A stretch of 64,000 nucleotides of DNA, taken from an uncultured Syntrophomonadaceae bacterium. GTDB taxonomy: Bacteria > Bacillota > Dethiobacteria > DTU022. This document shows positions 16,112 through 24,367 of the stretch, piece after piece; position 1 is the first letter of the stretch, and every line of letters begins with the position of its first letter. The stretch is from contig CAYXQO010000002.1 of NCBI GenBank assembly GCA_964467475.1, positions 57,787 to 121,786 of the forward strand, written 5' to 3'. The translations under genes were made by a program, and so were the position numbers. Below the pieces are notes generated by a model. That model did no database searches. It was not told where the DNA came from and worked only from the letters and a program-made list of their open reading frames with translations.

Positions 16112-18598
16112 TCAGCGAGCAACTATATTAACCAGGCGTCCTGGTACAGCAATCGTTTTAACAACTTCCTTTCCGTCAAGCAGTTCGCTAATCCTCTCAT
16201 TATTTCTGGCTTCTTCGATTAACTGTTCCTCTGAACAATCGGCCGGCACATTAATCCTGCCGCGTACTTTTCCGTTAATCTGGACTACCACTTCTACCTG
16301 GTCCACCTGGAGCATCTCCGAATCGTACTGCGGCCAGTGCTGCCTGTGCACGCTATCCTCATGTCCAAGCAGGCTCCATGACTCTTCCGCTATGTGCGGC
16401 GCAAAGGGAGCGAGCAAAATAACCATTTTTTCCAGGGCATCCCTTAAAACTGCATGATTGCTCTGCCCGTTTTCATTAGCTTGTCGGTAAGCATATGTGG
16501 CATTTACCAGCTCCATAATCGCACTGATTGCCGTATTAAAGTTGAAGCGCTCTTCTATGTCATGAGTCACCTTCTTAATTGCTCCATGAACACTACGCTG
16601 CAGCTCGGAATCACTATCTCTGTAATCGTCACGACCACCCCCGGAAATCACCTCTTCCCGGCACTCGTCAATCAAACGCCAGGCTCGGCGCAAGAAACGG
16701 TAACAACCCTCCACGCCCTGATCATTCCAATCAAGGTCCTTTTCCGGCGGTGAAGCAAATAGAATAAACAACCGGCCTGTATCGGCGCCGTACTTTGCTA
16801 CGATCTCATCGGGGGTAATCACGTTGCCCTTGGATTTGGACATCTTTGCCCCGTCTTTATAGACCATTCCCTGGGCCAGCAGGCGGGTGAAGGGTTCATG
16901 ACATTTAAGCATACCGGCATCATATAATACTTTGGTGACAAAGCGAGCATAAAGCAGGTGGAGTACTGCATGTTCAATACCGCCGATATACTGATCGACA
17001 GGCATCCAGTAATCAACCGCCTCTTTGTCGAAAGGAACTGTCTCAGAGTTCGGGCTGGTATAGCGCAGGAAATACCAGGACGAACATATAAACGTATCCA
17101 TCGTATCTGTTTCCCGCTTAGCCGGCTCGCCGCATAAGTGACAGGTGGTTTTAACAAAACTTTCGTAATGGGACAGGCTGGGCACACGGTTGCCGGATAA
17201 TTCAACGTCCATAGGCAATTCCACCGGTAACTCTTCTTCGGGCACCGGAATTGCGCCACACTGATCACAGTATTTTATAGGTATCGGCGCCCCCCAGTAA
17301 CGCTGACGAGAGATTAACCAGTCCTTTAGCTTGTAGGTGACCTTGAAAGTGCCCAGGTCTTGCTCTTCAAGGTATTCGGTAACTTTCCTAAAGCCCTCCT
17401 TCTCGCTCAAACCATCAAAAGTTCCTGAGTTGATCATCTTCCCCGGACCATCATAGGCTTCTGCCATGCTATCACCGGACAGGTTCTCCCCTTCCGGCTG
17501 AATCACTACCCTGACTTGCAGATTGTATTTGCGGGCAAATTCAAAGTCTCTCTGGTCATGAGCCGGCACACCCATTACCGCACCGGTTCCGTAAGCCATA
17601 AGCACATAATTGCCTACCAGGATCGGCACTTCTTCCCCATTGATCGGGTTAACCGCGTGACGACCGGTAAAAAGTCCGATCTTAGGAGTTTCTTCAGAAG
17701 TACGGTCAATTTCGCTCTCCTGCCGGACATTAGAAACAAACTCCATTACCTCTTCTTCCCGGGTCGTTCCTTCCACCAGTGGTTTAACCAGGGGGTGCTC
17801 CGGAGCTAAAACCATGTAGGTTACCCCAAAAAGCGTATCAGGCCTGGTGGTAAAAGTACGGATTTCTTCTTCGGGGAATTCCTTAACCTTAAAAGAAATC
17901 TCCGCCCCTTCACTTCTGCCGATCCAGTTCTGCTGCATCAATTTAACCCGCTCGGGCCATTCTTCCAGATCATTTAGGTCATCTAGCAACCGTTCGGCAT
18001 AATCGGTTGTTTTCAAAAACCACTGCTCCAGTTCCCTGGTCTCCACTACAGCGGAACAGCGCCAGCACAGGCCCTTTTCCACCTGTTCGTTTGCCAGGAC
18101 GGTTTGGCAGGTAGCACACCAGTTAACGTTTGATTTTTCTTTGTAGGCCAGATTCCTTTTGTACATTAGCAAGAACAACCACTGGGACCAGCGGTAATAA
18201 TCCGGCGAAGAAGTATTTACTTCCCGTTGCCAGTCATAGCTAACACCCAGCCTGTTTTGCTGTTCTTTCATATGCTCTATATTTTGCGCCGTCCACTCGG
18301 CCGGGTTGACGTTATTTTCAATAGCGGCATTTTCAGCAGGGAGTCCGAAAGCATCCCAGCCCATTGGGTGCATTACGTTGTAATCACGCATACGCAGGAA
18401 ACGAGCCAGGACATCCCCGATAGAATATACCCGCATGTGACCCATGTGCAGCTTTCCTGAAGGATAGGGGAACATCTCAAGTACATAATATTTAGTCTTG
18501 GAATGATCAACCTGGGAACGAAACGAGTCCTGTTCCTTCCAGAGTTTCTGCCATTTTTCTTCGATTTGGATCGGGTCGTAGTTTGTCACTTGCATCAT
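16112..18598 (-). CDS. leuS: Leucyl-tRNA synthetase.
   Basis: It carries the class I motifs HMGHMRVY and KMSKSKGN and a CP1 editing domain. Length is 828 aa. Confidence 0.95.
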   Translation of the reverse strand: MMQVTNYDPIQIEEKWQKLWKEQDSFRSQVDHSKTKYYVLEMFPYPSGKLHMGHMRVYSIGDVLARFLRMRDYNVMHPMGWDAFGLPAENAAIENNVNPAEWTAQNIEHMKEQQNRLGVSYDWQREVNTSSPDYYRWSQWLFLLMYKRNLAYKEKSNVNWCATCQTVLANEQVEKGLCWRCSAVVETRELEQWFLKTTDYAERLLDDLNDLEEWPERVKLMQQNWIGRSEGAEISFKVKEFPEEEIRTFTTRPDTLFGVTYMVLAPEHPLVKPLVEGTTREEEVMEFVSNVRQESEIDRTSEETPKIGLFTGRHAVNPINGEEVPILVGNYVLMAYGTGAVMGVPAHDQRDFEFARKYNLQVRVVIQPEGENLSGDSMAEAYDGPGKMINSGTFDGLSEKEGFRKVTEYLEEQDLGTFKVTYKLKDWLISRQRYWGAPIPIKYCDQCGAIPVPEEELPVELPMDVELSGNRVPSLSHYESFVKTTCHLCGEPAKRETDTMDTFICSSWYFLRYTSPNSETVPFDKEAVDYWMPVDQYIGGIEHAVLHLLYARFVTKVLYDAGMLKCHEPFTRLLAQGMVYKDGAKMSKSKGNVITPDEIVAKYGADTGRLFILFASPPEKDLDWNDQGVEGCYRFLRRAWRLIDECREEVISGGGRDDYRDSDSELQRSVHGAIKKVTHDIEERFNFNTAISAIMELVNATYAYRQANENGQSNHAVLRDALEKMVILLAPFAPHIAEESWSLLGHEDSVHRQHWPQYDSEMLQVDQVEVVVQINGKVRGRINVPADCSEEQLIEEARNNERISELLDGKEVVKTIAVPGRLVNIVAR

Positions 18599-18944
18599 CC
18601 CCTTTTAGAATATAAAAAATCCGCCCTCTTTCTCAAGGGACGGATTATTCCCGCGGTACCACCCTTATTGGTAAACATCTGGTGGAGCTGGCGGGAGTCG
18701 AACCCGCGACCTCTTCCATGCCAAGGAAGCGCGCTCCCACTGCGCCACAGCCCCATGTTGTATTACCCGCTTACTGGCCGTTACCGCCGGCTTACGGCAA
18801 CGATTACTTTTTCTTTCACCGCTGCTTCTCCGGGACGAGTTCAACATTCATGCCTGCCGGTTTTCAGCTAACCCGGCTCTCTTGGAAGACATTCCTGCCT
18901 ACTGCTTCCCATCATCGAATTAACTTTTTGGTACCTCGAGTACA
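18599..18944 (-). promoter_or_regulatory. T-box leader (Leu specifier) of leuS, interrupted by a tRNA-Ala gene.
   Basis: The canonical T-box motif AAUAAGGGUGGUACCGCGGG is at 18650-18669. The antiterminator (AAGGG / UGGUACC bulge / GCGG ... CCGU / CCCUU) overlaps a terminator (AUCCGUCCCU-UGAGAAAG-AGGGCGGAU + U6, 18613-18645) placed 18 nt before the RBS. A Stem I-like region at 18830-18930 has AGAGAG and a CUC codon at 18837-18839. A sigma-A promoter lies upstream. Confidence 0.75.
18680..18754 (-). tRNA. tRNA-Ala (anticodon GGC), CCA encoded.
   Basis: The 75-nt sequence folds into a perfect cloverleaf: acceptor GGGGCUG/CAGCUCC with the G3:U70 alanine identity pair, and discriminator A73-CCA. 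The D stem is GCGC/GCGC with G18G19; the anticodon stem is CUUCC/GGAAG with loop UUGGCAU; the T stem is GCGGG/CCCGC with loop UUCGACU. U8, U33, A37, T54, U55 and C56 are all present. Confidence 0.85.
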
Positions 18945-18950
18945 TTTAAC

Positions 18951-18979
18951 ATTATATGCACACCGGGAAACCTTGTCAA
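18951..18979 (-). promoter_or_regulatory. Sigma-A promoter for the leuS leader.
   Basis: On the minus strand, TTGACA (18974-18979), a 17-nt spacer and TATAAT (18951-18956). Confidence 0.6.
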
Positions 18980-19013
18980 TAGGAGTAGCTATATTTTACA
19001 GCAGTAGCATAGT

Positions 19014-19886
19014 TTAACCCAGGTCAAGAGAATATGACTCACCTGATTGCATATCAATTACCAGAAGTTTACCTTCGGGCAAAGCCCCATCTAACCCGGC
19101 CAGCAGTTTGATCGCCTCAGCGGATTGCCAGGAGGCCAGCATAGCCGGGGTGAATGCCGGATTGCCAAGCTGTGCTTCCACTCCTTGCCGGGCACCACCG
19201 GCAGCTTCCCCGTAAATTTTCGATAGTACCGGCCGCCCGGGTCTAATTACGGTAAGCTGCCCTAAGAAACCGGCAATAGCACCGTGCACCATGGGAATAT
19301 TTAATTCAGTACATGCTTTTTCTAAGTCAAACCGGGAGGGGAGGTTGTCAAGACAATCCAGGACAACGTCGCACCGGGAAAATAACCCGGGTAGATTTTC
19401 TGCATCTCCCCTACAGCTGCAGGCTTTAACTTCTACCGCACTGTTTATATCTTCAATGCGTTTTGCCGCAGCTTCAGCCTTGGACTGACCAAGGTTTATT
19501 TCAGTAGCCATTAACTGCCGGTTTAAATTACTTTCGGTAAAAATGTCATCATCTACAACCACCAAATTACCTACGCCCATCCGGGCCAGTAGCTCCAGAA
19601 CAAAGCCGCCTAACCCACCTGCACCTAAAACCCCGGCTGTAGATTTAAGCAGGTTAATCTGGCCGTTGATACCCACTGTACCCAGGCTGCGCTGGTACCT
19701 TTCAGGAATGACTCCTCCTTCAAGAGCAGCCATTTCCACCAGCCTGGCCGGAATATCAAAACTACTTGCCAGCCTTTGGGTTGCAGCTCTGTTTAGACAC
19801 AAATAGCTATCCCCGGACGGGCTAACTTGCTCATTAGCTGTGTCATTTACCGCTTTCTGAAGATTATTTTTGTCCATGCCACTCAC
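19014..19886 (-). CDS. ThiF/MoeB/HesA family E1-like adenylyltransferase.
   Basis: It has a Rossmann GAGGLGG nucleotide motif and an E1 core, plus about 50 extra N-terminal residues. It sits where yqeM normally lies. Confidence 0.6.
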   Translation of the reverse strand: MSGMDKNNLQKAVNDTANEQVSPSGDSYLCLNRAATQRLASSFDIPARLVEMAALEGGVIPERYQRSLGTVGINGQINLLKSTAGVLGAGGLGGFVLELLARMGVGNLVVVDDDIFTESNLNRQLMATEINLGQSKAEAAAKRIEDINSAVEVKACSCRGDAENLPGLFSRCDVVLDCLDNLPSRFDLEKACTELNIPMVHGAIAGFLGQLTVIRPGRPVLSKIYGEAAGGARQGVEAQLGNPAFTPAMLASWQSAEAIKLLAGLDGALPEGKLLVIDMQSGESYSLDLG

Positions 19887-24189: not shown

Positions 24190-24367
24190 AAATCAATTGA
24201 ATATTATTCACCTTCGATCCATTTATCCTAAGGCGTGCCATCAGGCATGACTAAGGTAAATGGACGATAGGGTACGGTTGGAAACGGCTGTGCCTCCCGT
24301 TGCGGAAAGAAGGTCATTGTTGACTAATTGACGATCGCATTTCCCAGCGGGAAAATGCGATTTTTTT
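24190..24367 (+). ncRNA. Structured 5' leader with an intrinsic terminator; candidate Moco/tungsten-cofactor-type riboswitch.
   Basis: The untranslated leader between the promoter and tupA is about 265 nt with several nested helices (UGCC-AUCA-GGCA; ACGG ... CCGU enclosing GGC-UGU-GCC; CCUCCC). A perfect terminator CGCAUUUCCC-AGC-GGGAAAAUGCG + U7 sits at 24336-24367, 88 nt before the start codon. The family assignment is not verified. Confidence 0.35.

Follow-up and report, generated by a model that had tools for sequence, protein, structure and literature searches.

A tRNA-Ala(GGC) gene housed in Stem III of leuS T-box leaders from several bacterial phyla

Can a riboswitch keep a complete tRNA gene between its sensor and its output domain, and what becomes of the two when they are transcribed as one RNA? 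The question is raised by the leader of leuS in a 64-kb window (the whole stretch of DNA analysed here, 64,000 nucleotides from an uncultured Syntrophomonadaceae bacterium), in which a T-box and a tRNA-Ala(GGC) gene occupy the same sequence. T-boxes and tRNA genes are both among the best-studied elements of their kind, and we came across no report of a tRNA gene nested in a T-box: the searchable literature, including TBDB (PMC7778990) and Wels 2008 (PMC2494555), gave no description of a tRNA, nor mention of any other gene, within a T-box leader, the surveys Vitreschak 2008 and Gutierrez-Preciado 2009 lying outside that scope. A first reading of this DNA from its letters alone (the sequence-only reading) knew of no described case either.

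We consider it probable that a working tRNA-Ala(GGC) gene has long been housed in the apex of Stem III of a canonical, transcription-terminating Leu(CUC) T-box of leuS, where it is co-transcribed with the leader and then excised. This reading draws on the anatomy of the leader, its conservation across phyla, the covariation of both the tRNA and Stem III, the specifier, a promoter that is single and conserved, and the preference for U at position -1 of the tRNA, all of which are observed. These leaders show that the helix of a riboswitch can hold a whole independent gene, apparently for a very long time, and they suggest that a leader RNA that is always made and usually discarded may serve as a tRNA precursor.

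Architecture of the leuS leader

The sequence-only reading had described a complete tRNA-Ala(GGC) gene with the alanine features G3:U70, A73 and CCA, and had let it take the place of Stem II, the IIA/B element and Stem III. The gene is confirmed. It is the one tRNA that ARAGORN finds in the whole window, it scores 68.9 bits with Rfam model RF00005 (cut-off 29, E = 6e-13), and G3:U70, A73 and an encoded CCA are all present. Its placement had to be revised. A search with the T-box covariance model RF00230 returned one full-length match (all 219 model positions; 109.5 bits, cut-off 93, E = 2.7e-23) in which the tRNA, together with linkers of 7 nt on its 5' side and 4 nt on its 3' side, makes up an insert of 86 nt within the apical loop of Stem III (helix GGUAA/UUACC, flanked by AAGCG and AA). 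The earlier suggestion of a structural spacer that replaces Stems II and III therefore fails, because Stem II, the IIA/B region and Stem III are all present (Table 1), and the 13-nt spacings given with it become 10 nt from the CCA end to AAUAAGGG and 18 nt from the CCA end to the UGGU bulge.

The other parts of the leader were as first described. The near-consensus promoter, the Stem I with its AGAGAG motif and a CUC codon in the context GAA-CUC-G, and the T-box sequence with an overlapping terminator ahead of leuS were borne out by the promoter match, by the covariance-model alignment, and by the RF00230 score above cut-off, a terminator scan and folding, respectively. A GAA..CUC..purine specifier, Stem II, IIA/B, an RRRNG-Stem III-AA signature, a UGGN bulge and an overlap of the terminator with the antiterminator are all found in the window, as in the canonical transcriptional T-boxes (RF00230; B. 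subtilis leuS, tyrS and glyQS). The leader differs from these in its complete tRNA gene with short linkers, which stands where they have a Stem III loop of 7 nt, the consensus length in Rfam. The RRRNG-Stem III-AA signature belongs to the aminoacylation-sensing domain (PMC7778990), and the AAGCG...AA of the window agrees with it. The 5' arm of the terminator is shared with the 3' strand of the antiterminator, which makes the two structures mutually exclusive, and comparable hairpins with a U-run are present in most of the other loci described below. The UGGU in AAUAAGGGUGGUACCGCG would fit the A73 discriminator of the ligand tRNA, and tRNA-Leu carries A73. In the minimum-free-energy fold of the leader (ViennaRNA), the terminator is retained and the Stem III helix closes around the tRNA domain.

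A single strong promoter, upstream of Stem I, serves the leader, the tRNA and leuS, so that leuS has to be read through the whole element, as the sequence-only reading had concluded. Both of its hexamers are unchanged in an alignment with six relatives whose LeuS proteins are 67-86% identical to that of the window. A promoter scan between Stem I and the tRNA found nothing promoter-like, and the tRNA is therefore most simply transcribed from the leader promoter. A candidate second promoter for leuS, a 10/12 promoter-like match inside the terminator (18609-18636, minus strand), was judged to be a chance match because it is not conserved in the relatives.

Two candidate pairings were also set aside. 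A GGUACC near the 5' end of the leader (18930-18940, minus strand) pairs with the GGUACC of the T-box in the minimum-free-energy fold; it is not conserved in loci L124 and L125 and looks like chance. If the T-stem or the ACCA of the tRNA paired in cis with the region of the T-box, the helix would have only 4-5 bp, and the T-stem sequence varies between phyla.

Table 1 Features of the leuS leader and its flanks (coordinates of the 64-kb window; all leader elements are on the minus strand)
Feature	Position	Strand	Basis or remark
ThiF/MoeB-family adenylyltransferase gene	19014-19886	minus	directly upstream of the leader, which lies between this gene and leuS
Sigma-A-type promoter TTGACA-17-TATAAT	18951-18979	minus	12/12 consensus match
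T-box leader, RF00230	18633-18924	minus	complete, interrupted by the tRNA
Stem I	18827-18918	minus	covariance-model alignment; AGAGAG motif (18877-18882) and specifier loop
Specifier codon CUC (Leu)	18837-18839	minus	context GAA-CUC-G (18836-18842); agrees with downstream leuS
Stem II	18798-18824	minus	model positions 106-132, high posterior probability
Stem IIA/B hairpin region	18785-18796	minus	high-posterior model alignment of the hairpin
Purine motif AAGCG	18768-18772	minus	directly 5' of Stem III
Stem III 5' arm GGUAAU	18762-18767	minus	covariance-model alignment
tRNA-Ala(GGC), 75 nt	18680-18754	minus	ARAGORN and Rfam; inside the Stem III loop
Stem III 3' arm UUUACC	18670-18675	minus	followed by conserved AA (18668-18669)
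T-box sequence AAUAAGGGUGGUACCGCG	18652-18669	minus	UGGU bulge at 18658-18661
Intrinsic terminator	18614-18646	minus	hairpin 18619-18645 and U-run; terminator scan, fold, sequence
leuS ribosome-binding site AAAGGGG	~18599-18606	minus	sequence
leuS (LeuS, 828 aa)	16112-18598	minus	homologues named leucine--tRNA ligase; Pfam tRNA-synt_1, Anticodon_1

Conservation of the nested tRNA and of Stem III

The nesting, which had been presented as an oddity of one locus, recurs widely. A search through 185,579 species, each represented by one genome, used a pattern that any CCA-encoding tRNA would fit (a T-loop, 12 nt, CCA and then, within 4-34 nt, GGGTGGNACCRCG) and gave at least 120 genome loci; the genome counts that follow are among the matches listed. 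A tRNA-Ala(GGC) is nested in 116 of the 120 loci listed, mostly upstream of leuS. ARAGORN names it in 111, four more hold that tRNA clipped by the edge of the locus, and one (L113) has its 3' half only. Chance matches occur in metagenome-assembled genomes (MAGs) of Polyangiaceae, Isosphaeraceae and Opitutaceae (L050, L065 and L115), the Opitutaceae match being a tRNA-Met; this one aside, no other tRNA species nested in a T-box was found among the matches listed. LeuS is encoded downstream in 112 of 123 regions (the 120 loci listed and L121-L123), at a median of 91 nt past the T-box sequence, and GAA-CUC-R precedes the nested tRNA by 75-150 nt in 101 of 114 genome loci.

More than 110 species-level genomes have the nested arrangement, and they are spread over at least seven bacterial phyla, assigned by record title and NCBI taxonomy. 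About 59 of the loci belong to Bacillota (Syntrophomonadaceae, Peptococcaceae, Desulfotomaculia-type genera, Thermacetogeniaceae, one Bacilli MAG and Symbiobacterium) and about 37 to Chloroflexota (Ktedonobacteria, with Tengunoibacter and Dictyobacter isolates, Thermomicrobiales/Sphaerobacter and 'Chloroflexia' MAGs). Candidatus Sysuimicrobiota contribute three, Armatimonadota, Atribacterota and Coprothermobacterota two each, and Caldisericota one, and a few loci come from MAGs with doubtful or no labels.

The placement seen in the window is also general. In 19 of 20 phylogenetically spread loci, a full-length RF00230 match spans the tRNA, and in the alignment of a Chloroflexia MAG the insert in the Stem III loop measures 81 nt. 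Nine of the 20 sampled loci score above the RF00230 cut-off and ten reach 55-91 bits with E<=3e-9; the insert thus pushes many real T-boxes under the Rfam cut-off, which matters for T-box databases. Annotation is affected as well, as pipelines that meet overlapping tRNA and T-box calls may drop one of them.

Loci were also fetched without any RNA pattern, through five LeuS relatives of 67-83% identity in MAGs named Dethiobacteria or Bacillota, and the nested tRNA was found in 8 of 8. This comparison of the regions upstream of leuS disposes of the worry that the window is an assembly chimera, and the recurrence in both sets of loci excludes a chance match. When the window was aligned with six relatives (these five and L121, of 86% identity), the promoter hexamers, the specifier, the tRNA and the T-box sequence were invariant, while the remaining leader had a mean column identity of 58%. 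Judged from these sequences, the nested architecture is ancient, widespread and deeply conserved.

Is the nested element a tRNA that translates? The copies comprise 79 distinct sequences and score 53.5-69.4 bits in the tRNA model, against a cut-off of 29. RNAalifold recovers the cloverleaf from 40 diverse nested tRNAs, with compensatory double changes in 16 of 21 pairs, whereas G1-C72, G2-C71 and G3:U70 are invariant (G3:U70 in 40/40). Across 111 loci with distinct flanks, the anticodon is GGC in 111, U33 is found in 110, position 37 is A or G, and ACCA is present in all 111, although the genome scan itself demanded an encoded CCA. Between close relatives, the tRNA is nearly invariant although the leader diverges. 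The sequence types are lineage-specific (GGGCCUG... in Ktedonobacteria, GGGGCUAU... in Syntrophomonas, and a CCCGC/GCGGG anticodon stem in Sysuimicrobiota), which fits a tRNA that has long been resident in each lineage, and not one that was recently transferred. The marks of an elongator tRNA-Ala are found throughout: a cloverleaf called by a tRNA detector, the AlaRS identity pair with A73 and CCA, compensatory change and a constrained anticodon loop. A tRNA-like mimic would be expected to have a relaxed anticodon and identity set, and here both are invariant across phyla. The combination of invariant decoding and identity features with covarying stems fits a translating tRNA and not a scaffold.

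At permissive thresholds, the model of transfer-messenger RNA (tmRNA; RF00023) reports the nested tRNA in L009, L010, L031, L045 and L054 at 41-46 bits (cut-off 47). Only about 75 nt are matched in these reports, although they are given as model positions 1-374, and we read them as a cross-hit to the alanine-tRNA-like domain of tmRNA, with no tmRNA present.

Covariation was also found in the helix that encloses the tRNA, so that the tRNA and Stem III are each under selection for a function of their own. The arms of Stem III were set by position alone, as the 6 nt that follow the last RAGNG and the 6 nt ahead of the AA preceding the T-box sequence. In 92 distinct loci, these arms are 70.7% paired, against 52.1 +/- 1.7% with shuffled partners, and none of 2000 shuffles was as high. 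At each of positions 2-5, between three and five types of standard pair occur, and duplexes of cognate flanks have a mean of -11.7 kcal/mol, against -7.8 kcal/mol for non-cognate flanks (p=1e-12). The linkers between Stem III and the tRNA range from 0 to 52 nt on the 5' side and from 0 to 21 nt on the 3' side across loci. The apex of Stem III appears to tolerate insertions and, from an engineering perspective, to be permissive for the insertion of cargo RNA.

Expression, processing and alternative explanations

The nucleotides preceding the nested tRNA bear on its processing. Among 111 distinct loci, 88 have U at N(-1), 95 have a purine at position -2 and 104 have a pyrimidine at position -3. 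A preference for U(-1) is typical of bacterial RNase P substrates, and its enrichment argues, indirectly but specifically, that RNase P cuts at the 5' end of the nested tRNA. Such a cut makes the later severing of Stem I from the antiterminator very likely, and this may in turn have a regulatory consequence.

In the mechanism that we propose, the one strong promoter upstream of Stem I would transcribe the entire leader. This transcription would be constitutive, and the choice between termination and read-through would be the only regulated step; each transcript, terminated or not, would carry the tRNA, with the tRNA made at the level of the leader and leuS mRNA at the level of read-through. 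The decision of the riboswitch would be co-transcriptional: the specifier would hold uncharged tRNA-Leu on Stem I, and the ACCA end of this tRNA would, with the UGGU bulge, stabilise the antiterminator. The apex of Stem III varies in length and, in published discriminator structures, is directed away from the ligand, and a tRNA that folds independently at this apex should leave sensing undisturbed. Once the decision is made, a 5' cut by RNase P and 3' trimming to the encoded CCA would free the mature tRNA-Ala. With CCA encoded, RNase Z is not expected to act. Freeing the tRNA would unavoidably cut the sensor, Stem I-II, off from both the antiterminator/terminator and the leuS mRNA. The specifier and the T-box sequence are intact and conserved, which indicates that sensing still works and suggests that cleavage normally follows the decision. 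These leaders are in this respect a natural experiment on how fast a co-transcriptional riboswitch must decide, given an RNase P that severs its sensor from its output domain.

What keeps the tRNA and leuS together is suggested by their contexts in metagenomes. A scan with the 5' half of the tRNA alone gave at least 119 loci, 82 of which have enough flank on both sides. The tRNA is accompanied by Stem I-II, the T-box sequence and LeuS in 38 of these 82, by a full T-box with LeuS not within 1.5 kb in 8, and by a decayed T-box with LeuS in 1 (L138); 28 are free-standing tRNA genes with their own terminators. In the other 7, which have no T-box, leuS starts 85-155 nt after the tRNA. A hairpin lies between tRNA and leuS in these T-box-less loci, and a strong promoter is found 25-45 nt upstream of the tRNA-Ala(GGC) in the ones whose upstream sequence was inspected (L146, L193, L216 and L241), as would fit a leuS that is transcribed from the promoter of the tRNA. 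The tRNA-leuS unit therefore outlives the T-box in some lineages, which supports a shared promoter as what keeps the pair together. We infer that the nested arrangement persists mainly through the dependence of the tRNA on the promoter and terminator of the leader.

Several points weigh against the reading of a working gene that is co-transcribed and excised. For every carrier, co-transcription and excision are deduced from the DNA. The scan needs an encoded CCA and a consensus T-box sequence, and its counts are no estimate of frequency for all leuS T-boxes. The cloverleaf is absent from the minimum-free-energy fold of the leader, a fold that is uninformative on the tRNA; in our experience, such folds commonly miss the cloverleaf of a tRNA. 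Free-standing, near-identical tRNA-Ala(GGC) genes occur in soda-lake and related metagenomes (L149, L150, L155 and L213), and these could be second copies in carriers or genes of other organisms. Lastly, a tRNA that is only a passenger leaves the restriction to tRNA-Ala(GGC) and to the Leu T-box unexplained. We assume that one ancient event accounts for this restriction. The T-arm of the four free-standing copies is identical to, or 1 nt off, the nested type of the window's clade, and some of them share a sample series with the window's relatives.

The nested tRNA might be kept because its excision belongs to the control of leuS, an addition to the reading above that does not exclude it. Read-through leuS mRNA would receive a structured 5' end (the 3' arm of Stem III and the antiterminator/terminator hairpin) that alters its stability or translation, spent leaders would be cleared, and the extra 86 nt would give tRNA-Leu longer to dock before the terminator is synthesised. 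Cleavage itself is very likely from the U(-1) enrichment and the invariant ACCA, and nuclease cleavage of the S. aureus met leader, by RNase III, affects mRNA stability (PMC7913692). The geometry, moreover, makes excision separate Stem I from the antiterminator, and the arrangement has been retained in seven or more phyla. Condon et al. (1996) reportedly found that the thrS leader of B. subtilis is likewise cleaved upstream of its terminator, with an effect on mRNA stability. However, an effect of excision on leuS mRNA is something that we infer, and the dependence of the tRNA on the leader promoter explains the conservation equally well. The survival of the tRNA-leuS unit after T-box loss, together with the leuS T-box of B. 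subtilis, which we take to lack a nested tRNA in a species whose tRNA-Ala gene is monocistronic, shows that neither element needs the other, and the widely varying linkers between Stem III and the tRNA argue against a precise structural coupling. Retention for the sake of leuS control is in our judgement unlikely. A related proposal, that folding of the tRNA within Stem III times the decision and that excision, by severing the sensor, ties the fate of leuS mRNA and the turnover of the leader to the capacity of RNase P and tRNA processing, is tentative and rather doubtful, if marginally less so; if true, it would make this a 'self-dismantling' riboswitch that is also a tRNA precursor.

A tRNA-shaped element that does not translate could act as a structural or regulatory mimic, either as an ACCA decoy for the UGGU bulge or as a scaffold in contact with RNA polymerase or with the ligand tRNA. 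The ACCA end of the element complements the bulge 18 nt downstream, and the tRNA species is always the same, but the earlier idea of a cis-acting mimic sits badly with the comparative data: the features on which AlaRS and the ribosome depend (G3:U70, A73, CCA, GGC, U33, the purine at 37, G18G19 and the T-loop) do not vary in at least seven phyla, the stems meanwhile covary freely, and a scaffold has no need of a fixed anticodon. The pairing in cis would be just 4 bp, in competition with a Stem III that covaries. In the precursor, the CCA has RNA after it, and a T-box treats a tRNA with a blocked 3' end as charged. Free-standing genes of the same tRNA type (with the same 5'-half sequence) and with their own terminators also exist. 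We therefore hold a mimic to be very improbable. Artefact or decay, whether as a chimeric assembly, as a pseudogene of a tRNA or as a T-box-like motif that by chance adjoins an ordinary tRNA gene, is already refuted by the comparative data, and its probability is negligible. A few loci do have decayed T-boxes (such as L138), and a MAG of Symbiobacterium (L113) has only the 3' half of the tRNA, adjoining a contig end. Nonetheless, the same architecture recurs in independent isolate assemblies and in many MAG projects, the tRNA scores, at 53-69 bits, are far from the cut-off across loci, the T-box is full-length and above cut-off in the window and in 9 of the 20 sampled loci with ten more at E<=3e-9, and both the tRNA and Stem III covary.

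In L113 (230-290, plus strand), from a Symbiobacterium thermophilum MAG, the T-box sequence, the terminator and leuS are present, and the tRNA is there only from the anticodon loop on. No Stem I can be recognised; the start of the contig is about 230 nt away, and an GGGACGGCC-rich repeat precedes the region. The truncation is probably an assembly-end artefact and possibly real.

Related systems and variant loci

Parts of the arrangement have counterparts in known systems. The stem Sa of the staphylococcal glyS T-box is likewise a clade-conserved, structured insert that is tolerated in a functional T-box; it is a plain hairpin in the terminator/antiterminator domain with a role in the riboswitch (PMC9177973), whereas the nested tRNA is a separate gene product in Stem III that is presumably cut out. 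In the S. aureus met leader, cleavage after the decision sets the 5' end of the downstream mRNA, as excision would here. The same is said of B. subtilis thrS. The difference from both is that the cleavage sites of the nested tRNA would be set by the embedded tRNA itself and made by the tRNA maturation machinery. In the E. coli operon thrU-tyrU-glyT-thrT-tufB, one strong promoter transcribes tRNAs and an mRNA of the translation apparatus, and RNase P separates them. The T-box-less loci (promoter, tRNA-Ala, hairpin, leuS) are exactly a tRNA-mRNA unit of this type. In such operons the tRNAs merely precede the mRNA, whereas the nested tRNA is enclosed in a folded riboswitch, with the sensor on one side of it and the expression platform on the other.

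The closest single gene for comparison is B. subtilis trnSL-Ala1, which is monocistronic, with its own promoter and terminator, an 8-nt 5' leader and no encoded CCA, and needs RNase Z (PMC1874595). Like the nested gene, it is a tRNA-Ala of single-copy type with a terminator hairpin right after the tRNA, and it is processed by RNase P; unlike the nested copies, all of which have the encoded CCA that the scan demanded, it is not described as part of any leader (PMC1874595). That trnSL-Ala1 is monocistronic in B. subtilis is probably why the nested arrangement escaped notice.

Several loci depart from the common plan. The seven T-box-less tRNA-leuS loci are L142, L146, L193, L197, L216, L226 and L241, several of which have RsfS upstream; L146 and L241 have a hairpin that looks like the terminator of a T-box, with the T-box sequence replaced. 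In the decayed locus L138 (contig Ga0224558_1001992), Stem I-II is recognisable (nhmmer E=2e-25), the specifier reads GAA-CCC-G and GGGUGGUACC is lost, while the tRNA, the terminator and leuS are kept. Nine further loci with a nested tRNA and LeuS downstream in 9/9 (L171, L176, L179, L183, L194, L205, L209, L219 and L244) have variant T-box sequences, in which GGGUGGUAACACG or GGGUGGUAACGCG, GGUGGUAUCGCG or GGGUGGUACAGCG replaces GGUGGUACCGCG, so that the usually invariant ACC after UGGU is altered.

A second tRNA, tRNA-Ala(CGC), accompanies the nested one in Chloroflexota loci from Ktedonobacteria and related genomes (L003, 1039-1111, minus strand; L040, 4012-4084, plus strand; L006; L047; L058). 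In all five it precedes the nested tRNA by 250-330 nt, and in L003 and L040 the T-box starts about 55-95 nt downstream of it. The leader region of these loci looks like a unit of two tRNA-Ala genes around a riboswitch.

Five loci without downstream LeuS (L013, L028, L069, L107 and L110) are from Desulfotomaculia-type genomes (Desulfofundulus, Desulfotruncus, Desulfallas and Pelotomaculum). A GAA-CUC-G specifier is present in four of them, the GAA-CUC scan being negative in L110. In L028 (458-2122, minus strand) and L013, leuS is replaced by a gene of the fatty-acid CoA ligase family (NF009233, E=4e-249, slightly below cut-off), and this CoA ligase might activate isovalerate for leucine synthesis.

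Elsewhere in the window, at 24200-24328 on the plus strand, there is an aptamer of the Moco (molybdenum/tungsten cofactor) riboswitch, RF01055, which scores 66.8 bits against a cut-off of 36.

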